A program made the position numbers and the translations under genes. 64,000 bases of DNA from Ostreococcus lucimarinus (taxonomy: Eukaryota), in NCBI GenBank assembly GCA_000092065.1, contig CP000583.1; one strand, written 5' to 3'. The notes under the pieces were generated by a model. That model saw only the letters and a list, made by a program, of their open reading frames with translations, had not been told where the DNA came from and did no database searches. This document shows, piece by piece, positions 27,700 to 63,865 of this stretch (position 1 is its first letter; each line of letters begins with the position of its first letter).

Positions 27700-30093
27700 A
27701 TGTGGACGCTCGAGTGCGCGACGGCGGCGGGCGCGCGCGATGCCGCGACGCTCGAGACGCTGAACGCGCACGTCGGGCGACAGGTGTGGACGCACGTCGA
27801 CGCGAACGAGGGAGACGACGAGGCGGGCGAGACGACGACGACGACGACGACGACGACGGGCGAGGGAAACGCCGCGCGACGACGGTGGACGAAGGAAGAG
27901 ATAAAGAGGGGACGCGCGGCGCAAGACGCGATGCGGGCGGCGTACGCGAAGACGCGGCACGAGCGTAAACACAGCGAAGACGCGTTTCTGCGCGCGCAGT
28001 ACGACGCGAGGCGAAGCGCGCGAGGCTTGGAGACGAAGACGAAGACGCCGAGCGCGATGGAGATTTCGAGAGGGGAAAAAGAGGGGAAGGGCGTCGACGG
28101 GGAGGTGGTGCGGCGAGCGATGCGAGCGGGGATCGAGTATTATCGAGGGATACAGGACGAGGACGGACACTGGGCGAGCGACTACGGCGGGCCGATGTTT
28201 TTGATGCCGGGGTTGATCATCGCGGCGAACGTCATGGAAAAATCGGAGGAGATCATCGGTGAAGCGCGAGGGCGGGAGATGCTGAGATACCTGGAGAATC
28301 ACTTGAACGAGGATGGGGGCGTTGGGTTGCACATCGAAGGTCACAGTACAATGTTTGGGACGGTTTTGACGTACGTGGCGATGCGGTTGCTCGGCAAGGC
28401 GGCGGATTCGCCCGAGTGCGCGAAAACGCGCAAGTGGATCATCGATCGCGGTGGCGCGACGCAGGTACCGTCGTGGGGGAAGTTTTGGCTCGCCGTGCTG
28501 GGGGTGTACGAGTGGCACGGGTTGAATCCGATTCCGCCCGAGTGTTGGTTGTTGCCGTATTGGCTCCCCATGCATCCGGGTCGATTCTGGTGCCACTGTC
28601 GCATGGTGTACTTGCCGATGAGTTACCTGTACGGCATCCGGGCCACGGGTAAACCGACGGCGTTGACCGCGGCGTTGAAATCGGAGTTATACGCCGAGGC
28701 ATCGTACGACTCAATCAACTGGAACACTGCGAGAAACGCGTGCGCGAAGGAGGACTTGTACTACCCGCACCCGTGGATTCAAGACGTCGTCTGGTCGACG
28801 CTCATGAAGGTCGAGCCGTTCTTGATGAATTCTCGCGTGCGCAAGGCGGCGTGCGAAGATGCGATGCGGCAGATTCATTACGAGGACGAAAACACGCGCT
28901 ACGTGGACATTGGGCCGGTGAATAAAGTCTTCAATATGTTGTCATGCTGGTTTGAAGATCCCGATTCAGAGGCGGTGAAGAAGCACATTCCACGCATCGC
29001 CGACTACCTCTGGGTCGCCGAGGACGGGATGAAAATGCAAGGATACAACGGAAGTCAGCTGTGGGACTGCGCGTTTTCCGTTCAAGCGATCGTAGCGACG
29101 GGTTTAGCGGACGAATATGGCGAGTGCTTACGTCGCGCGCACGACTACATCGAAAAGAGTCAAGTACGAGACGACTGCCCTGATGTCGAAAAGTGGTATC
29201 GTCACATTTCCAAGGGTGCGTGGCCGTTCAGCACACGCGATCACGGTTGGCCGATCTCCGATTGCTCCTCCGAAGGCTTGAAGGCGGCTTTGACGCTGGC
29301 GTCGATGGACGAGAAACTCGTCGGCGAGGCGATTCCCGTCGACCGACTCGCGGATTGCGTGAACGTCATCCTATCCTATCAAAATCGCGGCAGTGGTGGC
29401 TGGGCTACGTACGAAAATACTCGATCGACGAAGTGGGTCGAGCTCTTGAACCCAGCGGAGACGTTCGGGGACATCATGATCGATTACCCGTACGTTGAGT
29501 GCTCGAGCGCGAGTTTGCAGGCGCTGTGCAAATTTTCTGAGCGCTATCCGGACATTCGCGCCAAGGATATCGCGCATGCCAAGAAGACTGGCCGAAAGTT
29601 TTTGAAAAGTATTCAACGCGCCGATGGAAGCTGGTACGGATCGTGGGCGGTGTGCTTCACGTACGGAACGTGGTTCGGCGTCCTGGGATTGATCGCCACG
29701 GGGTCGACGTACGAGACGTGCCCATCGCTTCGTAAAGCAGTCGAGTTCTTGCTCTCGAAACAGCAAGAAAATGGTGGATGGAGCGAGAGCTATTTATCGT
29801 GCGAGAAAAAGGCGTACCACGAGCTTCGCGACAAGGATGGTAAGCCGAAGCCGCACTTGGTAAACACGGGATGGGCGATGCTTGCGCTCATCGCCAGCGG
29901 TCAACAAAACCGCGACGCGACGCCATTACATCGCGCCGCACGATGCATGCTCTCACAACAATATGAGAACGGCGATTTCCCGCAGCAAAGCATCATGGGT
30001 GTCTTCAACGCCAACTGCATGATTTCCTACAGTTGCTACCGAAGCATTTTCACACTCTGGGCGCTCGGCGAGTACTGCAACAAAGTTCTGTAA
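27700..30093 (+). CDS. CAS1: Oxidosqualene cyclase, most likely cycloartenol synthase
   Basis: A 797-aa ORF with a real ATG. The N-terminus MWTLECATAAG...LETLNAHVGRQVWTHVD matches the plant CAS1 N-terminus (MWKLKIAEGG...NNHVGRQ.WEFD). QW-type repeats are present, along with the catalytic region GWPISDCSSEGL (the DCTAE equivalent) and the C-terminal NGDFPQQSIMGVFNANCMISYSCYRSIFTLWALGEY. A (ACG)9-encoded T9 run lies at about 27832..27858. Confidence 0.88.
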   Translation: MWTLECATAAGARDAATLETLNAHVGRQVWTHVDANEGDDEAGETTTTTTTTTGEGNAARRRWTKEEIKRGRAAQDAMRAAYAKTRHERKHSEDAFLRAQYDARRSARGLETKTKTPSAMEISRGEKEGKGVDGEVVRRAMRAGIEYYRGIQDEDGHWASDYGGPMFLMPGLIIAANVMEKSEEIIGEARGREMLRYLENHLNEDGGVGLHIEGHSTMFGTVLTYVAMRLLGKAADSPECAKTRKWIIDRGGATQVPSWGKFWLAVLGVYEWHGLNPIPPECWLLPYWLPMHPGRFWCHCRMVYLPMSYLYGIRATGKPTALTAALKSELYAEASYDSINWNTARNACAKEDLYYPHPWIQDVVWSTLMKVEPFLMNSRVRKAACEDAMRQIHYEDENTRYVDIGPVNKVFNMLSCWFEDPDSEAVKKHIPRIADYLWVAEDGMKMQGYNGSQLWDCAFSVQAIVATGLADEYGECLRRAHDYIEKSQVRDDCPDVEKWYRHISKGAWPFSTRDHGWPISDCSSEGLKAALTLASMDEKLVGEAIPVDRLADCVNVILSYQNRGSGGWATYENTRSTKWVELLNPAETFGDIMIDYPYVECSSASLQALCKFSERYPDIRAKDIAHAKKTGRKFLKSIQRADGSWYGSWAVCFTYGTWFGVLGLIATGSTYETCPSLRKAVEFLLSKQQENGGWSESYLSCEKKAYHELRDKDGKPKPHLVNTGWAMLALIASGQQNRDATPLHRAARCMLSQQYENGDFPQQSIMGVFNANCMISYSCYRSIFTLWALGEYCNKVL
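30089..30093 (+). terminator. TGTAA poly(A)-signal motif overlapping the CAS1 stop codon (cTGTAAaag)
   Basis: The TAA stop at 30091-30093 is the last three bases of TGTAA. Confidence 0.4.
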
Positions 30094-30278: not shown

Positions 30279-30830
30279 CTACAGGTACCACAACACGCGC
30301 TTATCCGCCTTCAAAACCCCGTACACCGCCAACACGTCGTCCCCGCTCTCCATCTCCAGCGTCACGTTTGCGCTCACGTACTTCCCCTTCGAGCTCGGCC
30401 TCGCCGTCACGTTCTCCGGATGTATGTACCTCCCACCCAGCGCCTCCGAAATCATCTCTCGAACGCTATCGACGAACGTTCCGTCGTCCAAGCCGATGGC
30501 TTGAAACTTTCGCGCGCACGGGTACTCGTTGACGCGCGCGTCCAGCGCCTTCCACTTCGCGTCATTCTCATCGTCCTCGTTCGACGCCATCACCGTGGGC
30601 GTCCGCGCCTCGCTCGGCGTCGAGCGAGCATCGCGCGTTTTACGCAGCTCGCGCATGGTGTCGAGGAGCGAGGCATCGAGCGGCGTCGCGCGCTCTGGGT
30701 CGTCACCGCTCGAGGCGTCACCGCTCGCGGGGGAAGACGACGCGAATGCGACGCGCGCGCGCTGCGACGCGGGACGTGCGATGCGCCGGGTGACGTAGGT
30801 GTGTATACACTGCGCGCGCGCGAGGAGCAT
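30279..30830 (-). CDS. DUF493 / YbeD (UPF0250) family protein, probably organelle-targeted
   Basis: ORF 30279..30881. The listed start is a GTG and the first ATG is at 30830 (MLLARAQCIH...). The C-terminal domain reads EYPCARKFQAIGLDDGTFVDSVREMISEALG..YIHPENVTARPSSKGKYVSANVTLEMESGDDVLAVYGVLKADKRVLWYL. It matches the YbeD signature (FP..FKVIG ... PSSKG.Y.SV.V). Confidence 0.55.
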   Translation of the reverse strand: MLLARAQCIHTYVTRRIARPASQRARVAFASSSPASGDASSGDDPERATPLDASLLDTMRELRKTRDARSTPSEARTPTVMASNEDDENDAKWKALDARVNEYPCARKFQAIGLDDGTFVDSVREMISEALGGRYIHPENVTARPSSKGKYVSANVTLEMESGDDVLAVYGVLKADKRVLWYL

Positions 30831-30933: not shown

Positions 30934-33900
30934 TTAGCGTTTGGCGCGCGCGGCGCGTGATTTTGCCTTAGTTTTGTTCGCCTCGCGACTCGCCGCGGCG
31001 GTAGGGCGGAGCTCACCGCGCGCGAGCTCAGTTTTAACCTCGAGCGAGCCGCGGGAGATGCCGTGCGCTCGGCCATTCGCATCCGGTAATTTCGAGAGCC
31101 AACTCGCGAGTTCGCTCGAGGACGTGCGCCCGTTCGCTAGGTCGCGATAACGCGATAGAAGCTCGGGGACCACACTCGCGGGCTCGTCCACGAGCTCGAC
31201 GCGGAAGTGGCAAATGCCGGCGTCGATGAATGTTTTCAGGTACTCCGCGCCCGTTTGCGCCTGAGCGTTGAAGACGGTGTTTCGGCACCCCATGTCTGCG
31301 AGGACAAGATGGTCGGCACCGCGGTCGTCTCGCAAGTGCAAGTGCTTGCTCTCGCATGGATGGCCACAATCTTTGTACGAGTTTCCGTCGGACATGAATC
31401 GACAGAACACGCAGTGTTCGGTATGGAAGATTGGCAAATGCTGATGGACGATGACTTCGAGCTTGGACGCGCCCGCGGGACCGAGGGCGACTGCGAGCGC
31501 GCGTTGCTGCTCGGCGTTCAAGTCATGCGTTGGCGTCAAGCGCTCGAGTCCTGACCTCAGAAAGACGTCCGCACCGATTGCGTTGGCGGCGTTTAATGAA
31601 AAGTCACCACGAAGCGGTGGAATGACGACATCGGCGTCCGAGCGCCCGAGTTCGAGCAGTGTCTGTAATAAACCCGCCGATCGCACGAGCAGGGCGTCGG
31701 CGCCTAGATTGAGATAGTATCGCCACAGTTGCTCTTCTTCTGGCTTCAGCACGCGCGGCGTGGCGACCACGGCTGTTTTCCCCGCGGCTTGAACGAGACG
31801 AACCGTTTTTTGCAATCCGTGAACTTCTAAAAAGTCCAAAGCGATTTCGTCCACGCCATCGACAGTCACCGCAGCTTCGGCTTGCGCGCGCGTGCGACAG
31901 AGCACAGAGATGGACGGCAACCCGCTCGTAGGATTCACGCGCGGTTCTTTGCTCGCTCCTTTATCGCGTTGATCGATGATATCGCCCCACCATGCGTTGC
32001 CGACGAGTTCGTCGACGACTTCGCGCACCGCCATACCTTCGGCTCGATTCGGGCCACCGTCTCGCCGCGCTCGCAGGAGCGACTCGACTGCGTCCCGCCG
32101 CGCAGCTTTGATCTCGCCCGGTGATATGTAAAGTCCGTCCGTAGCCTGCGCGTCGACGTCTGCGATACCTCGAAGGGTGGAGACATCCACACTTGCCACC
32201 ACGAGCGGCGTTCCGCCGAGTTCGCCGATGGCTTTCTTCAACGAATTTTCGTCGAGCGCCTTGTTTTGACTCTTCTCCAACACAGAACCAGTGCGAGCTT
32301 CTCCGAATCGTCCGGCATCATCGATGATTTTGATGACTAGCGGTTCACCGATCGCACCACTCGCGACGACGGTGCACGGATCTCGACGACCGTCGCGACT
32401 CGGCTCGGCCTCCGCGGGAACCATCTTCGCGAGCTTGGCCTCGAGCGTCGGGTCGGATGTTCTCCACACTAGCTGTCCAACCTCGACCCGGTTGAAATCG
32501 ATTTGGTTCGCACCGAACGTAACGGTGTACTCGCCCGCGGTGATGCGGTCGTCGTCTTTACCGCCCACGAGCGCTCGATTGCGATCAAAAATTTCGTAGA
32601 CGCGACCGCCCTCCTCCTTCTCTTGCGGCTCGCCTCGATCGATGACGACGCCATCGCCGCGCTTCATCGCCGCGCCGTCGCTCGTGCGTACGACTATCTC
32701 ACCGTTCGAGCGTCTGCCGTCCGGCTTGATCACGCGCACGATTTCTCCGAGCAAGACGCCGCGATGCCTTGGGGCTCGTCCGCGAACGAGATTTTGATGC
32801 CGCGGTCCCTCCAGGAAACCGCGCGTCAATCCATCGAAATCCGCGTCTTGGCCGCGCGCGAACACTTGCGTGAGTTCCAGTCGCTGCTCTTTCGAGAGCA
32901 ATTCGGAGCGCTTCACGTCGCGTCCGCTCTGCATGGCGTCCCACGCCAAGTCCACCGCGCGGCGATACGCCTGCGTGGCGATGGCGACGTACTCTGGACC
33001 TTTCAATCGTCCTTCGATTTTAAAGCACCCCACGCCGGATTCGATGAGCTCGGGCACGAGCTCGACCGCCATTAAATCTTGCGGTGACAACAAATATTTT
33101 ACATCCCCCATCTCGCGCAGCTCGCCGTCGACGACCAATCCGTACGGCATTCGACACGCCTGCGCGCACTGACCGCGATTCGCCGACCGACCGCCCCAGG
33201 CTTCGCTCGAAAAGCACTGTCCACTGTAGCTCACGCACATCGCCCCGTGCACGAACGCCTCGACCTCGACGTCCGGACAGCTCGCTTTCACCGCGGCGAT
33301 GTCCGTCACGCTCAACTCTCGACCGACGACGACGCGCTTGCACCCGAGCTCTCGCGCGAAGCGCGCGCCCTCCGCGCTCGTCACGCTCATCTGCGTCGAC
33401 CCGTGTATGGGCAAATTCGGCGCCGTCTTCCGAATCAACCGCGTCACCCCCACGTCCTGCACGATCACCGCGTCCACGCCCGCGCGCGCCACGCCTCGAA
33501 TCAGCGTTTCCGCCAACCGCAACTCCTCGTCGAACACCAACACGTTCATCGTCACGTACGCTCGCCGCCCGCGCGACTTCACGTACGCCATCACCTCATC
33601 CAGCTCATCCAGCGTAAAATTACTCGCCCGCGCGCGCGCGTTCAGCGCGTCGAGCCCAAAGTACACGCAATCCGCGCCGGTCTCGATCGCCGCGCGCAAC
33701 TGCGGCCATCCGCCCGCCGGCGCGAGCACCTCCGGCTTCGCGCGCGCCGCCGCCGCCGCCGTCCCCTCCTCGCGCGCGGCGTCCTCGCGCGCGGCGTCGC
33801 GCCACGACGTCGACGACGATAACTCGCGCGACTCTCTCAGGTATCGCGCGCCCTTGCGCGCGCCCTCGGCGCGCGCGCGCGGCGTCGTCAACGTTCGCGC

Positions 33901-33990
33901 GCCGTCGCGGCGGCGGCGCGCGTTCGCGCCTCGCGTCGCGCGTCGCGCGCGCGGCGCGCCGCCGACGCGCGGCGACGCGTCCGCGAGCAT
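30934..33990 (-). CDS. Large peptidase-U32-family protein with two tandem U32 (collagenase / RlhA / TrhP-like) domains and a transit-like leader
   Basis: A 1018-aa ORF with a real ATG at 33990. The first domain reads KPEVLAPAGGWPQLRAAIETGADCVYFGLDALNARARASNFTLDELDEVMAYVKSRGRRAYVTMNVLVFDEELRLAETLIRGVARAGVDAVIVQDVGV...HGSTQMSVTS...FVHGAMCVSYSGQCFSSEAWGGRSANRGQCAQACRMPY. The second domain reads ...EIALDFLEVHGLQKTVRLVQAAGKTAVVATPRVLKPEEEQ...HQHLPIFHTEHCVFCRFMSDGNSYKDCGHPCESKHLHLRDDRGADHLVLADMGCRNTVFNAQAQ. Plus-strand ORFs in 33084..34216 are its shadows. Confidence 0.72.
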   Translation of the reverse strand: MLADASPRVGGAPRARRATRGANARRRRDGARTLTTPRARAEGARKGARYLRESRELSSSTSWRDAAREDAAREEGTAAAAARAKPEVLAPAGGWPQLRAAIETGADCVYFGLDALNARARASNFTLDELDEVMAYVKSRGRRAYVTMNVLVFDEELRLAETLIRGVARAGVDAVIVQDVGVTRLIRKTAPNLPIHGSTQMSVTSAEGARFARELGCKRVVVGRELSVTDIAAVKASCPDVEVEAFVHGAMCVSYSGQCFSSEAWGGRSANRGQCAQACRMPYGLVVDGELREMGDVKYLLSPQDLMAVELVPELIESGVGCFKIEGRLKGPEYVAIATQAYRRAVDLAWDAMQSGRDVKRSELLSKEQRLELTQVFARGQDADFDGLTRGFLEGPRHQNLVRGRAPRHRGVLLGEIVRVIKPDGRRSNGEIVVRTSDGAAMKRGDGVVIDRGEPQEKEEGGRVYEIFDRNRALVGGKDDDRITAGEYTVTFGANQIDFNRVEVGQLVWRTSDPTLEAKLAKMVPAEAEPSRDGRRDPCTVVASGAIGEPLVIKIIDDAGRFGEARTGSVLEKSQNKALDENSLKKAIGELGGTPLVVASVDVSTLRGIADVDAQATDGLYISPGEIKAARRDAVESLLRARRDGGPNRAEGMAVREVVDELVGNAWWGDIIDQRDKGASKEPRVNPTSGLPSISVLCRTRAQAEAAVTVDGVDEIALDFLEVHGLQKTVRLVQAAGKTAVVATPRVLKPEEEQLWRYYLNLGADALLVRSAGLLQTLLELGRSDADVVIPPLRGDFSLNAANAIGADVFLRSGLERLTPTHDLNAEQQRALAVALGPAGASKLEVIVHQHLPIFHTEHCVFCRFMSDGNSYKDCGHPCESKHLHLRDDRGADHLVLADMGCRNTVFNAQAQTGAEYLKTFIDAGICHFRVELVDEPASVVPELLSRYRDLANGRTSSSELASWLSKLPDANGRAHGISRGSLEVKTELARGELRPTAAASREANKTKAKSRAARAKR

Positions 33991-34426
33991 CGCGGCGACG
34001 CGCGCGCGACGTCCTCGCGGCGCGCGCGCGTCGACGGCGCGCGACGCGTCGATGTGGCGTCACTTCGCGGCATGCGCGCGGTGCTCGCGCACGCGCGCGA
34101 CGCGACGCGCGCGCGGCGCGACGTCGCCGCGCACGTGCACGTGCGGGTGCGTCGCCGCGATCGACGCGCGGACGCGCGCGCCGGACGCGCGACGCGCGCG
34201 ACGCGAGAGTGACTGACGACGCGACGGCTCGGCGTCGGCGCAGGATTCGACGACGACCGGCGCGGGGGCGCTCGTGGTCGACGCGCTCGTCGATGGACAC
34301 GCGCGGGACGTTCGCGCGGGCGACGCGGCGTCGCGAGCGGTCGTGCGCGCGCGATGGACGCGAGGGCGGGCGCGCGGGACGCCGACGGCGGATGTGGACT
34401 TGGCGGCGACGCGAGGCGAACGCGCG

Positions 34427-35260
34427 ATGACGGATGCGATTCTAGCCGTCGTCGAGCGCGAACGGACGGTGGTGACGACGCGAGACGCGACGCGGGACGC
34501 GACGGCGACGACGACGGGGCGCGGGCGGCGGAGCGGGGCGTTCGGGTACAAGCCGGACGCGGAGGCGAACGCGACGGTGGTTTTGGACTGCGCGAGCAAG
34601 ATACGACGCGCGTACGGCGAAAAGGCGCTGATTCGCGTCGTGCGCGCGCTGCGGCGACACAGAAACGTGTGCTTGGTGGTGACTTTGGGGGTCGGGACGG
34701 CGACGGCGCGCGAGACGTGCGAGGCGGAGGCGTCGTGCGTGGCGACGTGCGAGCCGGCGGAGGGCGACGACGACGGGTCGCGGGCTCGTTTAGACGTAGA
34801 AATCAGACGCGCGTGCGGACGGCGGCGTCGCGAGCGCGAGCGCGTGATCATTAGAGACGACGATTCTCTCGAGTTCGCGCCGTGCGAGGCGGAATCCGTG
34901 GAAGATGCGGTGGCGCGCGCGCTGCGCGTCGGCGACGACGACGCCGAGACGCGCGCCGCGAGGCGTCTCCAAGCCGTCGTCCCGTTCAATCTCGGCGTCA
35001 GTCTCACCGCGGAAGAGCGCGAGGCCAAGCGCAACGTGAAGCTCTCCTACGAGCACCAAGGCGTGCGCGGCGTCGAGGCGTACGACACGGGTGATTTTTT
35101 AGCCTACCTCCCGCCCGACGCCGGCGGCCGCGGCGTCGCCCTCGGCGTCGCCAAGCCCGGTCGCGGTCACATCTATTACGAGCGCGACGCCGCGGACGAA
35201 GACTTAGACGACGACGATCTTCACGTCGACACCGACGACGAGCTCGAGGAGGATTATTAA
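34427..35260 (+). CDS. Hypothetical protein with an acidic C-terminus. A weak Elongator Elp5/Elp6-like (RecA-fold) resemblance is unverified.
   Basis: ORF 34274..35260. The listed start is a GTG and the first ATG is at 34427 (MTDAILAVVERERTVVTTRD...). The central and C-terminal parts read ...VVLDCASKIRRAYGEKALIRVVRALRRHRNVCLVVTLGVG...LQAVVPFNLGVSLTAEEREAKRNVKLSYEHQ...HIYYERDAADEDLDDDDLHVDTDDELEEDY. The gene is supported only by ORF length, its AT-containing codons and its position between annotated neighbours. Confidence 0.4.
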   Translation: MTDAILAVVERERTVVTTRDATRDATATTTGRGRRSGAFGYKPDAEANATVVLDCASKIRRAYGEKALIRVVRALRRHRNVCLVVTLGVGTATARETCEAEASCVATCEPAEGDDDGSRARLDVEIRRACGRRRRERERVIIRDDDSLEFAPCEAESVEDAVARALRVGDDDAETRAARRLQAVVPFNLGVSLTAEEREAKRNVKLSYEHQGVRGVEAYDTGDFLAYLPPDAGGRGVALGVAKPGRGHIYYERDAADEDLDDDDLHVDTDDELEEDY

Positions 35261-35601
35261 CGCACCCGCGCCCTCGTCTCTCGCTCTCGCGCTCCCTTCG
35301 CCCCTCGCGCGCTCGGCGTCCGCTCGGAAAGAGCCCATAACTCGCGAGACGCCACCGTCGTTTCGGCGCGCGGCCGACTTTCGCGAAGTCAAGGCGTCGT
35401 AAATCCCCAGCAAAGGCAGTATGGTAATTTTTGCCCGCGCGCGCGCGCGCGCGTCTTCGACCCCCCCGAACCGCCGAACCGACGCGCGGCGTCGCTCGAC
35501 GACACGAAGCGTCGCGAAGGGTCGACTCGACCCTCGCCGCACACCGCGCCGCGCCGCGCCGGCCCGCGCGCGCGCGAGGGCGACGCGAGACGAAACGCGG
35601 C

Positions 35602-37032
35602 ATGGGCGACGGATCCGACGCCGCGCGCGGTCGCGTCGCGCGCGCGTCGCGCCCCGTCGCGCTGTACGCGCTCGCGTGCGGCGCGCTGACGCTCGCGACG
35701 TCGACGTGCGCGTCCGCGGCGACGCGCGCGGCGGGCGCGCCGCGCGGCGCGGCGTTCGCGCTCGCGCACGCGCTCGCGCTCGGACGACTGAGCGGCGCGC
35801 TCGCCGAGCGATGGCCGCCGACGCCGGCGCTCACGGCGCAGACGCTCGCGGGGACGCTGCTGCGAAACGTCCCGGGCGCGCGCGAAGCGATCGGCGGCGC
35901 GGTGCACCGCGACGCGTCGACGCTGGCGAGAGCGTTCGCGCTGGGATTGATATTGGCGCGCGCGGGGCTGGCGCTGGACGCGGCGACGGCGCGACGACGC
36001 GCGCGGGAGGTGGCGACGCTGGCGACGATTCCGGGGACGCTGGAGATGCTGGCGACGACGGCGCTGGGCGCGGCGTTCTTCGAGCTACCGATCGCGACGG
36101 CGTTCGCGCTGGGATTTTTGATGTGCGGGATATCGCTGGCGGTGGTGATTCCGCCGGCGGTGGCGATGAAGCGGACGGGGCTGGGCGTGGAGGCGGGCGT
36201 GCCGGATCTCGTCGTCGCCGCGAGCTCGTTTGACGGAATTCTGTGCATAGTCGGCTTCGGCGTGTGCGGCGGCGTCGTGGCGGCGTCGGGGGGGGGCGGG
36301 GCGAGCGCGATGGCGTGGAAGGTGCCGACGCAACTCGTCGTCGGCGCGCTCGGGGGAGTCGGCGCGGCGGAGTTCGCGACGAGGTCGGGATTGTTGTCCG
36401 CGCCGGGGAATCGCGCGAGCGCGACGTCGGACGCGTCGATGATTTTGTCCGTGGTTTTGTTGATTTTGTTCGCGGCGAAACGGTTGGAAGTGAACGGCGG
36501 AGGAGCGCTGGCGAGCATCGCGTTTTGCGTCGCCGTCTCGAGCGCGTGGAAATCGCGCGGGATGGAGGACGCGCTCAAGGAAACGACGGCGTTTATGAAC
36601 GCGCTGTGGGCCGAGTTCGCGGCGCCGCTTTTGTTCGTCATCATCGGATGCACGCTCGATTTGCACGCGATGACGGGCGACGTCGCGGCGAAGGCGATCG
36701 GAATCATAGCTCTCGGGGGAATTGTGCGAGCGCTCGGTGTCTTTTTGAGTACGGCTGCGAGCGAGTCGATGAATCTTCGCGAGCGAGCGTTCATCGCTCT
36801 CGCATGGACACCCAAGGCGACGATTCAGGCGGCTTTGGCGAACGTGGTTTACGACCAAGCGGTCACCGCTCATGGCGTCGGCTCGCCCGAGGCGCTCGAT
36901 GGCGAAAAGCTTTTACAAACCGCGCTGTTGTCGATTTTAATCACGGCGCCCTTGGGCGCCTGGTGCATCGCCTACTTCGCCCCGCGGCTTTTGAAGCAAG
37001 AGACGAAGCCCGTCGCCATCGCTGTAGCATAG
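35602..37032 (+). CDS. Sodium/proton antiporter of the NHA / SLC9B (CPA2) type; multi-pass membrane protein
   Basis: ORF 35431..37032. The ATG at 35602 (MGDGSDAARG...) precedes about 12 hydrophobic segments. The diagnostic stretch is ATIPGTLEMLATTALGAAFFELPIATAFALGFLMCGISLAVVIPPAVAMKRTGLGVEAGVPDLVVAASSFDGILCIVGFG, to be compared with the NHA2 motif TIPGL.E...A.SFDDILAITGF. Minus-strand ORFs 35004..36815 and 36085..36873 are its shadows. Confidence 0.65.
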   Translation: MGDGSDAARGRVARASRPVALYALACGALTLATSTCASAATRAAGAPRGAAFALAHALALGRLSGALAERWPPTPALTAQTLAGTLLRNVPGAREAIGGAVHRDASTLARAFALGLILARAGLALDAATARRRAREVATLATIPGTLEMLATTALGAAFFELPIATAFALGFLMCGISLAVVIPPAVAMKRTGLGVEAGVPDLVVAASSFDGILCIVGFGVCGGVVAASGGGGASAMAWKVPTQLVVGALGGVGAAEFATRSGLLSAPGNRASATSDASMILSVVLLILFAAKRLEVNGGGALASIAFCVAVSSAWKSRGMEDALKETTAFMNALWAEFAAPLLFVIIGCTLDLHAMTGDVAAKAIGIIALGGIVRALGVFLSTAASESMNLRERAFIALAWTPKATIQAALANVVYDQAVTAHGVGSPEALDGEKLLQTALLSILITAPLGAWCIAYFAPRLLKQETKPVAIAVA

Positions 37033-38482: not shown

Positions 38483-38694
38483 GGCGGGCGATGATCGCGA
38501 TGTCAAGCGACGGCGCGCGCGGCGGGAGTCGCGACGCGGGAGTCGCGCGTCGGTGTGACGCGCCGTCGCGGCGCGCGTGTGATTTTAGTAAAAACCCGCG
38601 TGTGGTAAAATCACACTCGCGCGCGCGCCGACGACGAAAGTTTCGCGACGGTTCGGTTGGAAGTTCGATCGTCGCACGCGCGAGCGCGCGCGAC

Positions 38695-38757
38695 GCGAAC
38701 GACGCGAGCGACGCGAGAGCGCGACGCGAGCGACGCGAGCGACGCGAGGGACGCGAG
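38695..38757. repeat. Imperfect tandem repeat of GACGCGAGC-type units immediately upstream of the ATG at 38758
   Basis: The sequence gacgcgaacgacgcgagcgacgcgagagcgcgacgcgagcgacgcgagcgacgcgagggacgcgag. It lies in the 250-bp divergent SHMT/oxidase intergenic region. Confidence 0.7.
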
Positions 38758-40434
38758 ATGCCGACGCGCGCGGTCGCGGTGGTGCTCGCGGCGACGCTGG
38801 CGGCGCGAGGCGCGCGCGGGGAACACCCTCGGGACGCGAGCAACTGGCAAGGAAAGCACGCGTGCGACGCGGCGGGCAGAGCGGCGAAGCCGCGGTCGGT
38901 GCGCGACGTGTCGGAGGCGGTGTACGCGTCGACGGATGCGCGCGCGAACGGTGCGGGGCACTCGTGGCATTCGGGATTGTTTTGCGCCGCGAACGGCGGG
39001 ACGCGCGTGGACGTGAGCGAGACGCGGGCGGTGCGCGCGGCGGAGCGTTTCGCGCTGGACGAAGGGGCGATGGCGGCGCGCGCGGACGCGGGGATGCTGA
39101 CGAGAGATTTGCTCGATGGGCTCGCGAGACGTGGGTACACGCTGCCGGCGTTTCCGTGGTTCATAGACCAGACGATCGGGGGGGCGATCGCGACGGCGAG
39201 TCACGGGAGCTCGCTCAGAGCGGGATCGCTCTCGTCGCAGATGGTGGCGTGCACGCTTGTCAAGGCAGATGGTTCCGTGGAGCATTTCTCCGAGGGCACG
39301 ACGCCCGCGCCGTTGTTCGACGCGCTGCGCGCGAACATCGGGCGGTTGGGTGTCGTCGTTGACGTCACGCTGCGCGTGGTGAAGAACACGCGAATCACTC
39401 GTAGAAACGAGGACGTGAGTCCCGAGGCGTTCGTCAACGAGATGCGGCGCGTGCAGGACGCGGTGCGAGCGTGCGAGCGCGATTACGCTGGCAACTTTGA
39501 CGCGCAGTGGTCGTGCGCGATGAACAAGCCAGAGGTGCGTGCGCTCGATGAAACCCAGTTTTTCTGGTACATTCCCCTCGGTGAAATGAGTCGCGTGCAC
39601 TTCGAGCGCGAGGAGCCGATGCCTTCGTTTCCTCGATACGACGAGCGAGGGTCGAAGGAGCTTTCCTCGATTTGGTATGGTTCGTTGAGCGGCAATGATT
39701 TGATTCGTGACTCGCCTCGCCGTGTTCGCGATATCACATCTCCTGTGACGCTGATGAGCGCCGACTCGATGGCGGAATCCTGGGCGAGACAATGGAAGCG
39801 CGCGACTCTCGCGAACATCGCCAATAACACAGAAGAACAACGAGATAATTTTTTATCGATGACTGAGCGCCAGTACGAGTTACATCAGCGATACGGGTAC
39901 GAGCAACTTGAAGTCGCGGTGCCGTTAACGAAGGCTGGCGATTGCATGCGCGCGTTCAAGGAGGCCTTGTACGACGACCGGCAGTTGAATTTAGGATTTC
40001 GCTCGCAGGCGTTACTTCGGTTCATCAAACCCGAAAGCGCGTGGCTGTCGCCCGCACATGGGCGACTTGGGTCCTTGTACATCAACATTGAAGATTTCAT
40101 CAAGTATTCCCGCTTGATCGATCGATATGGAAATCCACGCTTTGACGCCGCAGTTAAAATTTTACGCGGGGACTCGTGCGAAGGGAGATTGCACTGGGGG
40201 AAGTTTGGCTTCCCGGAACGCCGAGGGTGCTTTGACGGTGCCAAGGAGTATGGTGTTGCGTTTTGTCACTTCGGCTGTCACGTGCATCGTTTGGATCCCA
40301 CGGGAAAGTTTGCTGGAGATTCAGACGTCTTGCGCTTCGACGGCGTTGATTTCGTACACTGCTGCGGCGATGACGGATTGTTCAAAGAAAGCTCGACGTG
40401 TCGGTGCGCGCTAACGGATCGTCAATCATGCTAG
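38758..40434 (+). CDS. FAD-linked oxidase of the L-gulonolactone / D-arabinono-1,4-lactone oxidase type (VAO-fold FAD-binding domain plus ALO C-terminal domain with an HWGK motif); signal-peptide-like N-terminus
   Basis: ORF 38491..40434. From the ATG at 38758 it reads MPTRAVAVVLAATLAARGARG, a hydrophobic leader. The FAD-binding domain reads ...AGHSWHSGLFCAANGGTRVDV...AFPWFIDQTIGGAIATASHGSSLRAGSLSSQMVACTLVKADGSVE. The C-terminus reads ...GRLHWGKFGFPERRGCFDGAKEYG. The upstream in-frame ATG at 38491 would abut the divergent SHMT start. Confidence 0.68.
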   Translation: MPTRAVAVVLAATLAARGARGEHPRDASNWQGKHACDAAGRAAKPRSVRDVSEAVYASTDARANGAGHSWHSGLFCAANGGTRVDVSETRAVRAAERFALDEGAMAARADAGMLTRDLLDGLARRGYTLPAFPWFIDQTIGGAIATASHGSSLRAGSLSSQMVACTLVKADGSVEHFSEGTTPAPLFDALRANIGRLGVVVDVTLRVVKNTRITRRNEDVSPEAFVNEMRRVQDAVRACERDYAGNFDAQWSCAMNKPEVRALDETQFFWYIPLGEMSRVHFEREEPMPSFPRYDERGSKELSSIWYGSLSGNDLIRDSPRRVRDITSPVTLMSADSMAESWARQWKRATLANIANNTEEQRDNFLSMTERQYELHQRYGYEQLEVAVPLTKAGDCMRAFKEALYDDRQLNLGFRSQALLRFIKPESAWLSPAHGRLGSLYINIEDFIKYSRLIDRYGNPRFDAAVKILRGDSCEGRLHWGKFGFPERRGCFDGAKEYGVAFCHFGCHVHRLDPTGKFAGDSDVLRFDGVDFVHCCGDDGLFKESSTCRCALTDRQSC

Positions 40435-59074: not shown

Positions 59075-62000
59075 TCAGCACAAGTAACCGCGACAGTTGT
59101 CGGCGCCGCAATAGCACGGCACTTTGCCGTCTTCGCTTTCGAATCTGTAGTTGTACGTCAGCTCTTCCCCGGGCCGAACGTCGGTTCGAGCGAAAAAGAT
59201 GATGTGATTCGCGTCGTCTACTTTGACGATTTTTGAGTACATGTTCGGGTTGCAGCTGTGATTGGTGAATCGCGCAAAGTTTCCTTGAAACGTGCAATCG
59301 ACGACGGTGTCGTCGTCTTGTTTTAAGAGGTAGCAATCCACTCCGTTATCTTCGTAAAAGGTTTCGCGAAGATCCGCGACGGTGCTTCGACACGTCTCGC
59401 CTTTGAACTGCGTGACGATGGAACCCGCCTTGTGGAAAACCTTGGCCACCAGTCCCCATCCGTGTATGTTGGATTTGGCGAACGTGAGTCTATCGGAGTA
59501 CGACGCCGTCATTTGTTCGAGCTTCTCTCGCATCGTGAGCCCATGCTGTTCGACGACTTTATCATCCGAAGCGCCGTTCACGCCCCTAGCCTTGCGCTCC
59601 GCTTGTACCGCCGCAAACTCTTCGGGCGTGTACTTTTTTGAAGCAATCAACTCGCGCTTGAAGGCGCCTCGCGACCCGCGCACGATGTACGGCGTAAGTC
59701 CGACGTACAGACGTTTTCCTGTCTTCGGCGGTGGTCCCGTAACCTTGGCGTTTTTGTCGTTTTTATTCAATCCAAGACGCTTGTACACGTTGGCTTGAAT
59801 TTCTTCGAGCTGCTTGCGGCTGAGATTTCTCTGGTGTCCGAGCGATTTGGCGGACAGGTCAACGGTTTTTTCGCGCCGGATTTCGCATCCCCACACCTCG
59901 AGCCATTTTCCAAGCGACATTACCGTTCGGTTATTGAGGACGACTCTGATGTGATGGCTCCACTTCTTCGGTCCTTTCACTCCAATGTGGGCTTCAAACC
60001 GCGACCTCTCGTGGTACACCGGCCCTTGGTCGCTATCGACGCACGCTCGACACAGACATTCGATTCGTCGCGTTTGTACGTGATATGTCCCAGATACACC
60101 TTTGCATACGACGCTCACCATCGCTGGCAAGTCATCGGGAACGTGCGTACGAACGGCGTCTTCGTCTTCCGATTCTTCGTCGTCTGAACCCTCCATGTAC
60201 GGAGCGTTATCACCAAGCGCGATGCGTCGATCGATCTCGTCGTCCTCAAACTCTTGAGGCACTGAACACACCGAAAATGCGGCTTCAGGATTTTTCTGAC
60301 ACGTCCACATGTCGGCATCATCGGCAGATAACTTCTCCGCAAAACTTTGAGGGACGCGCCGCCACTTCCCGCACGACGGGTTCTCGCACTGCACCCAAGC
60401 CTCTTTCTCACGAGGCTTTTTCGGCCGCCCGAGTTCCGCGATCTTGGCGCGGTCTGCGGGATTAGACGGTCGTTTTGCTGATGTAAATTGTGCGTTGGCG
60501 ATCGCCAGTTGCGTCTCAAGTTGTGTGTTTTTGCCAGAGCTTAATTTTGCGGCTTCAGGCAAAAACGACAAATCCGGTGCCTCGCCATCGACGAATTTCA
60601 AATTTTGCGCATCACGCGTAAACGATATCATCAAGTCTGTCCCATCGTCGAAAATGACTTTATACCGAATGCCAGTGCGCGTTATCGTGACGTCAATCAT
60701 CGTTCCGTCTTTCCAGTCCGGTGCGAGAATGGTACCGGTGTCGATTTGCACGCGGCGTCCAACGAGAGCTCTTGCTCGAGTCTCTTCGCCGCTCTTATCT
60801 TCCAACTTGTCGTCTTCAAATGTTCCCAGACCGAGACCGAGGAGTGCGTGCGTACGCGAAGCTTTGGGCCGTTGGGCTTTTGGTTTTGCCGACATCGACG
60901 CAACCTTGGCCGTTTTTCCAGTATTCGCGAGCACGACGATATTGTGATCGGTAAGCCAATCACCGAAAGCTTGCTCGCCACCGTTATCGTCGACGACGAC
61001 TCTGATTGACGTTTTCCATTTCTTGGTGTGCTTCATACCCGCGTGCTGCTCCCATCTGTTCGCTTCCCACAGAGTCGTCGCGTCAGAGTTCGTGGCTTCG
61101 GCCTCACGTCTGCACCGTCCGCAGAGACATTTGATCAACGTATCTGCTGGTCTAAATATTCCTCTAAACGTCTTGCAGTAAATGTTTACTTCGGGAATAT
61201 CCGGACGCGGAACGTTTCCTTCAGGTACGGGTAAGCCGCCGGGAAGTGCCGGGTACTTTGCTTCCGGCAACTTTGCTTGCAGCGCCAACGTCGCACTCTG
61301 AGGTGAGCTCTCGGAACGCTCTGATACGGTTTTACGTCTCTTTGATTCCGGAAACGTCGTTGAGGGATCTAATTTGGCATCGGCATCCTCCACGGCATCC
61401 TCGGCGTCTGTTTTACCGCCTTCGGCATTGTCGTCGTCGTCGTCGTCTGTTGGATCGGCGTCGTACTCAACGTCGAGATCTGTCGAGAGTTCTGCGTCGT
61501 CGTCGTCGTCGTCATCCTGCAATAAGTCTTCAGTAGTTTCCATGGTATCGACGCGTTGATGCGCGATGACGTCGTCTTTTGTATGCACCATGTCTGTATC
61601 AGCACGTTCCGTCATGTCGTCGTCGTCGTCGTCATCCTCGTCGTCGTCGTCGTCGTCGTTCTCGTCCTCGTCGTCCGCGTGCAAGACCCGTTTACGAACT
61701 CGATACTTCTTCGTTCCTGACCCGGGAGCGTCGGGATTTTCTTCGTTTTCGTCCTTGATGTCCGCCTCCGTCCTCGGATGACCAAGTTGCTCGTAACGAC
61801 GGAACTTTGCGCAGTTCATGAAGTCTGTCTCAGAGTCTGAGCTCAACTCTGGCTCATCAGCGAGCGTCGCGGATGCTTCTCGTCTCTCGCGCTCTTCTGT
61901 TTCCGCGCGCATCTCCGCCTTGGTACGTTTTCGTTCCTTATTGGCACCACACTCCAACAGCCGTCCCTCCTGGCCGATCTTCAAGCCCTCTGTGCCGGCG

Positions 62001-63865
62001 TAAATTTGTGCGCGCTCGACGTCGACACGACAGTGTCTATGACAGTACGACAGTAACTGTAATGGCGATTCATCATCGTCGCCATCGTCGTTGGCATCCA
62101 TGTACAAACCAGTCGCGCGCGCGCACAACGGATGATACGCGATGTAGCAACCCGGATGACAGCATTGGATTTTCGCGCCCATGCGTTGCTTACAGACCGT
62201 GCACAAGAGCGACCAGCGTTCTTTTTGAATGTTTGCGATGTTATCGATGGGCTCCATGCGCTCGATATCAAGCACGGTGGTCTCGGGTATCCATTGGCAG
62301 CACGCGCTGTGCGCCCAGAGCGAAGGAATCGTCGTCGGTTTGAGCGCACCGCCGGCGACGGGACACAAACAACACAAGGGTGTTTCGCTCACTGCACCAC
62401 CGGTGTGCTCGCACGAACGACACAGCCAACCGACGGTGTCGTCTGGTATGTCTGGAACACCGTAGCAAGACTGATGCACCGTCACCGCGCACGCCTCGCA
62501 CGTGATGAGCTGGTCAAAGTCGAAGTCGCGCTCATCGTCGCACACCGCACACCGATCGACGCTCCAACTCACTTGCACGATTTCGTAATCCAGCGAAGCA
62601 TTTTCATCGTCCTCGGTATGTTGATCCCTACGAGCGTTGAAATCATTGCCGTCCAAGAAACGTCCTATGGGCATCTTTGCCGGCTCAATCATTCTCAAAG
62701 ACGCCTTCCACTTTTTCGCTTGCCCCATGCCAGCGTGCTTTTCGAACTCAGTCGGCGTCATGTACTTGTTCGTTCCTGCGCAATCCGAGCATTGACACAT
62801 CACTTGATTCAAGCGCGTGTAATAGTCTGCGGCCACGCCGTTACAAATCACCGCAAGTGTCTCTGGCAACTCGTTCCCGTCGCGAAGCTTGGAAATATCA
62901 CCCGCCTTGGAGCGACGCGACGCCTTGCTCGCATCGGGGTTTCGTTCCGTCTTCACCCTCGCTGCGTGCGCGTCTGGGTTCAAGATTTTATCGTAACGCT
63001 TTCGCTGCTGGTCGTCGAGCTCGCCGCTCTCAAACATCTCCGTGATCATCTCTCTAAATCGCTCCGCCTCATCTCTGGCGAGCTCCTCGTATCTCTCGCG
63101 CTCTGACGCGTCAATCTCGCGCCACGCCGCACCCTGCTCGCGATAGACCGCGGCGAAATCTATGTTATCTTCGCCGTTTTCGTCTTTGTACTGTTGGAAG
63201 AAATCCGCGGCGAAGAGCTGCCACGAACTCTTCGGTCGTTTGGGCACGGTGTTTTGCTTCTTCGACACTGCGTGCGGCGATTTCATCGTCCCCGCTCGCA
63301 CCGAGGCTGAGGAAGAACCCTTTAGGAGTTTATCCAGCGTTGGCATGCGCCTCAGCAGCATTTTAGCCTCTTTCATCTCCTTTGAAGGTCGACCGACTCG
63401 AGGTTTGCTGAGAAGTTTTTCCAAGCGCTTGCGCTCTCGAATCTGCGCCTTGCGTTCAGCCTCGACGCGCGCTTGCTCCGCGAGTCTCGCCTCCGCGGCG
63501 ATCTGCTCGGGAGTTTTACTTCTACACACCGGACACGCGTACGGAATATCCTCATCCTCACCGTTTTGTTCTCTATCCAACACCTCCGCCGCCACGGCGT
63601 CGCATTCGCGATGAATCCACATCTCGCATCGATCGCACCCCACCATGGCGTCGCCCGCGCTCCAGTGCCACACTCGATCGCACACCGGACAGAACTGACC
63701 CTCTTTGTGCAACTTTCTGCACAGCGCGCAGAGCCCATTCGAGTTTTTCGATCGCAACGACTCGTCATCCGTCACGCCGCACGACGCGCACCGACGCGTC
63801 GCCAGCCGCTCCGCCGGCGCGCTGCACGGCAACCCGAACGAGTCCTGTAATCCCAGCACCCCCAC
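59075..63865 (-). CDS. Trithorax-group (MLL/ATX-like) histone-lysine N-methyltransferase: N-terminal PHD-like finger, HMG box, PHD and extended PHD, CW-type zinc finger, acidic repeats, C-terminal SET and post-SET
   Basis: A 1596-aa ORF. The SET and post-SET region reads KSNIHGWGLVAKVFHKAGSIVTQFKGETCRS...GNFARFTNHSCNPNMYSKIVKVDDANHIIFFARTDVRPGEELTYNYRF...VPCYCGADNCRGYLC. The HMG box reads PKRPKSSWQLFAADFFQQYKDE...YREQGAAWREIDASERERYEE. The PHD reads CAVCDDERDFDFDQLITCEACAVTVHQSCYGVPD...WLCRSCE. The CW finger reads WVQCENPSCGKWRRVP...DMWTCQ. (GAC/GTC)n-encoded D/E runs occur near 61440..61680. The listed start at 63865 is a GTG, and the first in-frame ATG (aa 74) cuts a zinc-finger motif, so the true N-terminus is upstream and unresolved. 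Confidence 0.82.
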   Translation of the reverse strand: MGVLGLQDSFGLPCSAPAERLATRRCASCGVTDDESLRSKNSNGLCALCRKLHKEGQFCPVCDRVWHWSAGDAMVGCDRCEMWIHRECDAVAAEVLDREQNGEDEDIPYACPVCRSKTPEQIAAEARLAEQARVEAERKAQIRERKRLEKLLSKPRVGRPSKEMKEAKMLLRRMPTLDKLLKGSSSASVRAGTMKSPHAVSKKQNTVPKRPKSSWQLFAADFFQQYKDENGEDNIDFAAVYREQGAAWREIDASERERYEELARDEAERFREMITEMFESGELDDQQRKRYDKILNPDAHAARVKTERNPDASKASRRSKAGDISKLRDGNELPETLAVICNGVAADYYTRLNQVMCQCSDCAGTNKYMTPTEFEKHAGMGQAKKWKASLRMIEPAKMPIGRFLDGNDFNARRDQHTEDDENASLDYEIVQVSWSVDRCAVCDDERDFDFDQLITCEACAVTVHQSCYGVPDIPDDTVGWLCRSCEHTGGAVSETPLCCLCPVAGGALKPTTIPSLWAHSACCQWIPETTVLDIERMEPIDNIANIQKERWSLLCTVCKQRMGAKIQCCHPGCYIAYHPLCARATGLYMDANDDGDDDESPLQLLSYCHRHCRVDVERAQIYAGTEGLKIGQEGRLLECGANKERKRTKAEMRAETEERERREASATLADEPELSSDSETDFMNCAKFRRYEQLGHPRTEADIKDENEENPDAPGSGTKKYRVRKRVLHADDEDENDDDDDDEDDDDDDDMTERADTDMVHTKDDVIAHQRVDTMETTEDLLQDDDDDDDAELSTDLDVEYDADPTDDDDDDNAEGGKTDAEDAVEDADAKLDPSTTFPESKRRKTVSERSESSPQSATLALQAKLPEAKYPALPGGLPVPEGNVPRPDIPEVNIYCKTFRGIFRPADTLIKCLCGRCRREAEATNSDATTLWEANRWEQHAGMKHTKKWKTSIRVVVDDNGGEQAFGDWLTDHNIVVLANTGKTAKVASMSAKPKAQRPKASRTHALLGLGLGTFEDDKLEDKSGEETRARALVGRRVQIDTGTILAPDWKDGTMIDVTITRTGIRYKVIFDDGTDLMISFTRDAQNLKFVDGEAPDLSFLPEAAKLSSGKNTQLETQLAIANAQFTSAKRPSNPADRAKIAELGRPKKPREKEAWVQCENPSCGKWRRVPQSFAEKLSADDADMWTCQKNPEAAFSVCSVPQEFEDDEIDRRIALGDNAPYMEGSDDEESEDEDAVRTHVPDDLPAMVSVVCKGVSGTYHVQTRRIECLCRACVDSDQGPVYHERSRFEAHIGVKGPKKWSHHIRVVLNNRTVMSLGKWLEVWGCEIRREKTVDLSAKSLGHQRNLSRKQLEEIQANVYKRLGLNKNDKNAKVTGPPPKTGKRLYVGLTPYIVRGSRGAFKRELIASKKYTPEEFAAVQAERKARGVNGASDDKVVEQHGLTMREKLEQMTASYSDRLTFAKSNIHGWGLVAKVFHKAGSIVTQFKGETCRSTVADLRETFYEDNGVDCYLLKQDDDTVVDCTFQGNFARFTNHSCNPNMYSKIVKVDDANHIIFFARTDVRPGEELTYNYRFESEDGKVPCYCGADNCRGYLC

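Follow-up and report, generated by a model that had tools for sequence, protein, structure and literature searches.

We analysed a stretch of 64,000 nucleotides from Ostreococcus lucimarinus (GenBank assembly GCA_000092065.1, contig CP000583.1), referred to below as the window, and found that a single-exon gene on its minus strand encodes a protein of the peptidase U32 family. Judged by its sequence, this protein is a member of the RlhA subfamily in its long form, RlhA1 + RlhA2, with the domain order U32-DUF3656-U32. In Escherichia coli, RlhA (YdcP) is the synthase of 5-hydroxycytidine at position 2501 (ho5C2501) of 23S ribosomal RNA (rRNA) (PMC5727448). We think it probable that the algal protein is a nuclear-encoded, organelle-imported long-form RlhA that would hydroxylate C2501 of an organellar, most likely plastid, 23S rRNA with prephenate as the oxygen donor, and that its gene came from bacteria. 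An earlier note, made from the DNA letters alone, had proposed an organellar RNA-hydroxylation function of cyanobacterial origin. The function remains the best reading, in the form of an RlhA-type role at 23S rRNA C2501; the cyanobacterial source found no support in the analysis presented here.

Domain Architecture and Family Assignment

The first methionine is the sole plausible start of the protein, because the reading frame is closed by a stop 22 codons upstream and the next methionine, residue 134, is already inside the conserved core. Aligned with bacterial homologs of about 880 residues, the protein matches end to end without interruption over about 90% of its length, with about 50% identity. 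Pfam recognised two U32 domains, as the earlier note had described, the second being divergent (Table 1). The U32 C-terminal domain that the note had also expected (PF16325) is absent by Pfam, and DUF3656, which the note had missed, sits between the barrels. The same Pfam library resolves E. coli RlhA as U32 plus DUF3656, TrhP as U32 plus Peptidase_U32_C, and UbiU and UbiV as U32 alone, while the long forms of Deinococcus, Chromatiaceae and Leptolyngbya have two U32 domains plus DUF3656, as in the window protein. U32 motifs have been divided into 12 subfamilies; the combination of U32 with DUF3656 is restricted to RlhA's own subfamily, and in about half of the RlhA1 proteins there is another U32 motif at the C terminus, RlhA2a/b (Kimura et al. 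2017, PMC5727448). The tandem-U32 layout is thus not new in itself, being the already-described long form of RlhA.

Comparison with the four E. coli U32 paralogs gave the same assignment module by module. In BLASTP searches domain 1 matched RlhA with 196 bits (42% identity), TrhP with 154, UbiU with 131 and UbiV with 30, and a domain 1 profile built from 79 homologs ranked them identically (270, 229, 180 and 16 bits, respectively). A profile of the middle module (residues 401-690) matched RlhA alone among the paralogs (67 bits, E = 7e-22). The alignment to E. coli RlhA pairs residues 87-642 with residues 9-504 and so extends through DUF3656 (E = 1e-57). The domain 2 profile was weakly similar to all four paralogs (15-27 bits), UbiV scoring 21 bits and RlhA and TrhP 25-27. 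The proposal that domain 2 is UbiV-like is unsupported at this level, as all four paralogs are equally weak. The literature agrees with the earlier note that characterised U32 proteins are hydroxylation factors rather than proteases. Of the two activities which that note had in view, the one at 23S rRNA C2501 is retained through membership of the RlhA family, and a TrhP-like activity on U34 of transfer RNA (tRNA) is dropped, given the order RlhA > TrhP > UbiU for domain 1, the presence of DUF3656 and the absence of Peptidase_U32_C.

NCBIfam ranked the candidates differently, with TrhP (NF011996) first at 218 bits, followed by UbiU at 172 and UbiV at 61.8; all of these lie below the curated cutoffs of 534, 440 and 275 bits, respectively. 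No RlhA model is among the NCBIfam matches of the protein, which is probably why TrhP comes first. We rejected an assignment to TrhP on this score and on PF16325, which is absent here but present in E. coli TrhP, and an assignment to UbiU/UbiV on scores far under the cutoffs and on the different architecture. Among the genes scanned in the window there was no ubiT-like neighbour. The NCBIfam order nevertheless bears on a reading in which the protein is a prephenate-dependent U32 hydroxylase with another substrate, either organellar tRNA U34, in the manner of TrhP, or a quinone or other aromatic small molecule, with the two fused barrels corresponding to the UbiU-UbiV heterodimer. This reading can also draw on Degli Esposti et al. 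(2023, PMC10411912), who call the C-terminal domain UbiV-like, and on the fact that the function of long forms has been assigned by homology only. We consider it unlikely in view of the subthreshold NCBIfam scores, the domain 1 order, the domain 2 scores (UbiV no better than RlhA or TrhP) and a middle module, DUF3656, that is specific to RlhA and stands in a protein lacking the Peptidase_U32_C of TrhP.

Cysteine Clusters and Predicted Structure

The residues of the U32 motif on which RlhA activity depends in E. coli are retained. In domain 1, C252, C259, C275 and C279 correspond to C169, C176, C192 and C196 of RlhA and form a CX6CX15CX3C motif that is invariant in 98 of 98 aligned sequences, E. 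coli RlhA included. E244, H248 and Q258, equivalent to RlhA E161, H165 and Q175, are likewise invariant. Mutants of E. coli RlhA have shown that C169 and C176 are essential for ho5C2501 and that E161 is nearly so, and the CX6CX15CX3/4C pattern has been linked to [4Fe-4S] binding in U32 proteins (Pelosi et al. 2019). A second group of cysteines in domain 2 is a presumptive second Fe-S site; in the same alignment C860 is conserved in 98% of the sequences, C863 in 62%, C875 in 99%, C879 in 100% and C902 in 99%. C611 and C614 of E. coli RlhA align with C875 and C879, and in E. coli the C-terminal residues C580 and C611 are essential, C611 being the one of the two with a clear counterpart here. We therefore expect, from conservation of these positions, that the mature enzyme would carry two [4Fe-4S] clusters, one in each U32 barrel.

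Residues 564-620 of the E. coli protein (rlhA, L001 6782-8743) contain the strings VPVMITKHC and C-RPCEMH, which resemble HLPIFHTEHC and CGxPCE of long-form domain 2. The match of E. coli C572 to C860 lies in a short motif and is not statistically significant. These two short cysteine motifs, the match being below significance, are a hint that the short-form RlhA arose by truncation of the long form, its tail being what is left of domain 2.

An AlphaFold2 model built from a 79-sequence alignment had a mean predicted local distance difference test score (pLDDT) of 84.3 and a predicted template-modelling score of 0.87, and this confidence leads us to expect that the three modules form one compact body. 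Weak regions of the model are residues 1-47 (pLDDT below 50), residues 57-64, the cysteine loop at residues 253-267 and the segment 683-686; the low-confidence cysteine loop would hold a cluster. In a fold search the best solved structure was 5D88, the U32 protein Mk0906, followed by generic triosephosphate isomerase (TIM) barrels, and no structure of RlhA, UbiU or TrhP was among the results. A sequence search of the PDB with the window protein gave no match.

A Leader, a Motif and a Tail Found in Eukaryotic Members

The earlier note had called attention to an Arg/Ala-rich leader, and comparison with homologs established that it is specific to eukaryotes. Bacterial homologs have 3-14 residues ahead of the conserved string KPE[LV][LM][AS]PAG, where the window protein has a leader of 85 residues and all eukaryotic homologs have 36-120 extra residues; residues 1-47 of the window protein are predicted to be disordered. 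Within this extension lies a motif with the general form [RK]KN[PAVS]x[LIM]Y, abbreviated RKNPxLY, which in the clade of the window protein reads RKGARYL. The motif was present in 53 of the 68 proteins with an N-terminal extension of at least 30 residues, in none of the 113 with short N termini, and nowhere in the 163 proteins of bacterial size. This pattern of conservation indicates that the extension consists of a presumptive transit peptide and, behind it, a conserved module that the mature protein probably retains. At the other end, the string KPTAA closes the part that the window protein has in common with its nearest, gammaproteobacterial clade, and a Lys/Arg-rich extension follows in eukaryotes only. 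AlphaFold2 predicted a helix at residues 998-1017 of this tail, for which a role in RNA binding is our speculation.

Distribution and Origin of the Gene

Among the best 120 matches, the named eukaryotic orthologs are 48-60% identical to the window protein over about 90% of its length. They belong to Coccomyxa, Micractinium, Parachlorella, Volvox, Pleodorina, Chlamydomonas, Edaphochlamys, Ulva, Picochlorum, a pedinophyte and the chlorarachniophyte Bigelowiella natans, and by this sampling orthologs occur throughout Chlorophyta and in Bigelowiella. No land-plant ortholog was among these 120 matches, although bacterial proteins with 50% identity were listed there. The nearest relatives of all are marine sequences (71-79% identity), and a public copy of the window protein differs from it by a one-residue indel and two substitutions.

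The closest bacterial proteins are about 875-890 residues long, and all the labelled ones come from Gammaproteobacteria, namely Chromatiaceae, a gammaproteobacterial metagenome-assembled genome (MAG), Thiosocius teredinicola and Sedimenticolaceae; these labelled relatives are sulfur oxidisers. We built a distance-based neighbor-joining (NJ) tree from an L-INS-i alignment of 98 sequences and 829 columns, with 300 bootstraps and E. coli RlhA as the root. The clade with gammaproteobacterial labels had 100% bootstrap support, and the eukaryotes grouped with this clade and one unlabelled bacterial sequence (P0117) at 99%. Eukaryote monophyly was recovered with weak support (30%).

The tree gives no support to the cyanobacterial origin suggested in the earlier note. 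Two Leptolyngbya sequences fall outside the algal group, beside Deinococcus, Chloroflexi, Acidobacteria and Planctomycetes, and in a search seeded with the Leptolyngbya protein a further Leptolyngbya sequence (78%) came ahead of those from Deinococcus and Chloroflexi (about 52%), with no alga in the best 120 matches. Leptolyngbya is also the sole cyanobacterial source of a long-form RlhA among the matches listed in our GTDB scan (at least 600), its proteins being those of a MAG (L004 3001-5502) and P0168. The long form looks sporadic in cyanobacteria, where it was possibly acquired laterally. We consequently set aside a cyanobacterial source as unsupported, the algae being placed with the gammaproteobacterial clade and the sole cyanobacteria elsewhere. 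Similar proteins have been described for Magnetococcales, as well as for other Alphaproteobacteria that branch deeply (Degli Esposti et al. 2023, PMC10411912), and Magnetococcales lie outside our tree sample. Taken as an indication from an NJ tree, the eukaryotic long-form RlhA has a proteobacterial, non-cyanobacterial affinity. In the scenario that we favour, the gene would have been gained from bacteria by a chlorophyte ancestor and would now be present also in algae with secondary plastids.

Proposed Function

Among the nucleotides of bacterial rRNA, ho5C2501 is the one hydroxylated residue known; its place is the peptidyl-transferase centre, and it is responsive to iron as well as to oxidative stress. 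Its formation by E. coli RlhA needs prephenate and Fe-S cluster biogenesis, and prephenate has been shown to be the oxygen donor for the related UbiU/UbiV. For U32 proteins it has been proposed that the ring first undergoes a two-electron oxidation and that hydroxide is then delivered as prephenate is decarboxylated. For the algal protein we envisage import, most likely to the chloroplast stroma, after which the first 40 or so residues would be cleaved. The mature enzyme would then dock on an early pre-50S assembly intermediate of the organellar large subunit and convert C5 of the universally conserved C2501 (E. coli numbering) to 5-hydroxycytidine, with the prephenate hydroxyl as the source of oxygen.

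A link between the long form and the modification comes from Deinococcus. The Deinococcus long form is 44-47% identical to the window protein, and the 23S rRNA of D. radiodurans contains chemically verified ho5C2501 (Kimura et al. 2017, PMC5727448). By analogy, long-form members may make ho5C2501.

Compartment

The plastid is the most likely destination of the window protein, as several features of the protein and its relatives suggest. In plants and algae the shikimate/prephenate pathway is plastidial. Since RlhA needs prephenate and algae make prephenate in plastids, an enzyme of this kind is best placed there. Bigelowiella, whose secondary plastid is of green-algal descent, retains an ortholog, which favours the same compartment. 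Three basal eukaryotic relatives (P0047, P0053 and P0069) have hydrophobic, signal-peptide-like N termini with a maximum Kyte-Doolittle hydropathy over 12 residues of 2.5-2.9, compared with at most 1.47 in all 35 others, and such starts fit the bipartite leaders of complex plastids, again favouring the plastid. The contig of P0047 is eukaryotic, with RING, CAF1/PARN and UBA genes, and this adds to the case. The best named match of the CAF1/PARN protein, Ectocarpus at 36%, fits the occurrence of U32-DUF3656-U32 fusions in stramenopiles, alveolates and Rhizaria (SAR) reported by Degli Esposti et al. (2023). Adjoining P0047 we also observed a bacterial-type aconitase B gene (Aconitase_B_N + Aconitase_2_N + Aconitase; L087 1909-4813, minus strand), split into two calls.

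The same enzyme with the same chemistry could instead be directed to mitochondria, where the C2501 equivalent of the large-subunit rRNA would be its target. The Arg/Ala-rich leader, with few acidic residues among its first 40, is compatible with a presequence, some orthologs have short basic N termini, C2501 is conserved universally, and deep-branching Alphaproteobacteria possess the similar proteins mentioned above. We nevertheless judge this destination improbable, for prephenate is made in plastids and not in mitochondria (textbook knowledge), the signal-peptide-like N termini of the three basal relatives are foreign to mitochondrial proteins, the named eukaryotic matches all belong to photosynthetic lineages, and no alphaproteobacterial sequence is among the labelled close relatives.

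Several observations weigh against an RlhA acting on plastid rRNA. With no land-plant ortholog among the top matches, the modification is evidently dispensable for plastids generally. Our literature searches uncovered no description of ho5C from plastid or mitochondrial rRNA, direct catalysis by E. coli RlhA itself has not been reconstituted, and the coincidence of long form and mark in Deinococcus is a correlation only. With regard to compartment, the Arg/Ala-rich leaders of Mamiellophyceae appear to suit plastid and mitochondrial import alike, the host of the three relatives with signal-peptide-like starts has no closer named CAF1/PARN match than Ectocarpus at 36%, and the Bigelowiella gene model, which may be truncated, has no signal peptide.

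The database name "collagenase-like PrtC family protease" and the collagenolytic activity reported for Porphyromonas gingivalis PrtC and Helicobacter pylori HP0169 might suggest a true collagenase-like protease, which we regard as very improbable: PrtC and HP0169 belong to other U32 subfamilies, PepU32#4 and #2 (Kimura et al. 2017, PMC5727448), the conserved positions are those of Fe-S ligands and not of a protease catalytic set, and an organelle-targeted protein would have no collagen to act on.

The conservation of a presumably organelle-targeted RlhA across Chlorophyta predicts ho5C2501 in an organelle that evolves oxygen and is hungry for iron; if true, no earlier case of rRNA hydroxylation would be known from a eukaryotic organelle. 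In bacteria the modification follows the supply of iron and oxidative stress, so that translation in the plastid could then be tied to iron and shikimate-pathway status in iron-limited marine picophytoplankton. More broadly, we propose, as a tentative generalisation about which we are somewhat doubtful, that plastid ribosomes of green algae and of some secondary algae carry ho5C2501, made by an O2-independent prephenate/Fe-S enzyme that was gained laterally from Proteobacteria and is equipped with the RKNPxLY module. In any case the gene probably encodes an organellar translation factor whose ancestry does not lead back to the cyanobacteria among the matches listed. Its practical value is modest.

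Genomic Setting and Other Features of the Window

The DNA around the U32 gene is eukaryotic nuclear and both flanks carry eukaryotic genes, in keeping with the eukaryotic setting claimed in the earlier note. According to Pfam, the long open reading frames (ORFs) of the window include SET/PHD/HMG/SAND/zf-CW, BEACH-WD40, MIF4G and NIF/SAP phosphatase proteins, SHMT, a starch-branching-type enzyme and an oxidosqualene-type cyclase. A 99%-identical copy of the gene, with the same neighbours, is present on three independent marine metagenome contigs; this recurrence excludes an assembly artefact. Bacterial contamination or a chimeric assembly, which the roughly 50% identity to bacterial proteins could bring to mind, is thus refuted by the flanking genes and the repeated gene order, and further by orthologs in many sequenced green algal genomes and by a leader and motif that are specific to eukaryotes. 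An Rfam scan of the window detected no rRNA, tRNA or other RNA gene.

Table 1. Features of the U32 gene and its product, with their positions in the window
Feature	Coordinates	Strand	Residues	Basis
Long-form RlhA-family coding sequence, single exon, complete	30934..33990	minus	1018 plus stop	ATG start; ORF listing
N-terminal extension (26% Ala, 24% Arg); residues 1-47 a presumptive cleavable targeting peptide	33736..33990	minus	1-85	Composition, homolog comparison, AlphaFold2
Motif RKGARYL, local variant of the eukaryote-only RKNPxLY	33838..33858	minus	45-51	Homolog comparison
Peptidase_U32 domain 1, RlhA1 type	32818..33510	minus	161-391 (barrel from about 86)	Pfam, 258 bits
Cysteine motif 1, C252-X6-C259-X15-C275-X3-C279, presumptive [4Fe-4S] site of domain 1	33154..33237	minus	252-279	Alignment to RlhA
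DUF3656 (PF12392), RlhA-specific middle module	32065..32469	minus	508-642	Pfam, 57.6 bits
Peptidase_U32 (PF01136) domain 2, divergent, RlhA2-type barrel	31069..31710	minus	761-974	Pfam, 48.4 bits (cutoff 22.4)
Cysteine cluster 2 (C860, C863, C875, C879, C902), presumptive second Fe-S site	31285..31413	minus	860-902	Column conservation
C-terminal tail; its LRPTAA part in common with the gammaproteobacterial clade, its Lys/Arg-rich extension in eukaryotes only	30937..31035	minus	986-1018	C-extension comparison

The U32 stop codon is followed on the same strand, after 103 nt, by a DUF493 (YbeD-like) gene (30279-30830, 183 residues from the first ATG), whose product has an N-terminal leader of its own that is rich in Arg, Ala and Ser (MLLARAQCIHTYVTRRIARPASQRARVAFASSS...). 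With such tight spacing one may ask whether the two genes are transcribed together as a bicistronic unit. They stand side by side in contigs of the same species and probably also in a relative with 79% identity; neither a relative with 60% identity nor any of 80 bacterial loci has them adjacent. We rejected a functional link between the two genes on account of this narrow distribution. Convergent with the DUF493 gene is an uninterrupted single ORF of 797 residues for an oxidosqualene/squalene-hopene-type cyclase (27700-30093, plus strand).

Upstream of the U32 gene, the segment 34000-36000 is the most GC-rich of the window (GC 0.74) and contains long ORFs that overlap on both strands and have no Pfam match. 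A 328-residue ORF (34274-35260, plus strand; 277 residues from its ATG) with an acidic tail is divergent from the U32 gene at a distance of about 436 bp, and a 533-residue ORF (35431-37032, plus strand) is membrane-protein-like. Also present are an uninterrupted single ORF for an L-galactono-lactone dehydrogenase-like protein with FAD_binding_4 and ALO domains (38491-40434, plus strand) and a chromatin-type protein of 1523 residues (59075-63646, minus strand), in which an HMG box, SAND, PHD fingers, zf-CW and a C-terminal SET domain are combined in one ORF.

Comparison with Known Systems

E. coli RlhA, the characterised member of the subfamily, likewise consists of an RlhA1-type U32 domain followed by DUF3656, with 42% identity in domain 1 and with E161, H165, C169, Q175, C176, C192 and C196 all kept in the window protein. 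It is shorter, at 653 residues, and has a tail of about 150 residues with cysteines in place of a full second barrel, so that overall identity is about 29%; it also lacks the N-terminal leader, the RKNPxLY motif and the basic C-terminal tail of the algal protein. Closer in layout are the bacterial long forms of about 830-890 residues (the Deinococcus DR2130 family and those of Chromatiaceae, Thiosocius and Leptolyngbya), which have the same architecture and both cysteine clusters and are 45-55% identical over about 90% of the length. In these proteins the core is preceded by 3-14 residues and the sequence finishes with KPTAR(R); the algal protein adds the 85-residue leader, with its conserved motif, and the basic tail. 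TrhP (YegQ) and UbiU/UbiV have in common with the window protein the U32 barrel with its CX6CX15CX3C Fe-S motif; their prephenate chemistry is presumably also the same. They differ from it in that TrhP has Peptidase_U32_C rather than DUF3656 and that UbiU and UbiV are single-domain proteins forming a heterodimer.

Mainstream papers on U32 proteins call the family essentially prokaryotic. The earlier note considered the algal proteins little explored, which is a fair description, except that U32-DUF3656-U32 fusions had already been noted in one sentence of the methods of Degli Esposti et al. (2023, PMC10411912), who found them most frequent in SAR and Chlorophyta. These fusions are of the same class as the window protein, and that paper contains no rRNA-hydroxylation assignment, targeting analysis, motif or phylogeny of the eukaryotic genes. 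The U32 family itself, the double-U32 long form, the hydroxylation role and the occurrence in eukaryotes are thus already on record. The present analysis adds the assignment of the algal protein to RlhA, the conserved leader with its RKNPxLY motif, an indication of proteobacterial affinity and a circumstantial case for targeting to the plastid.

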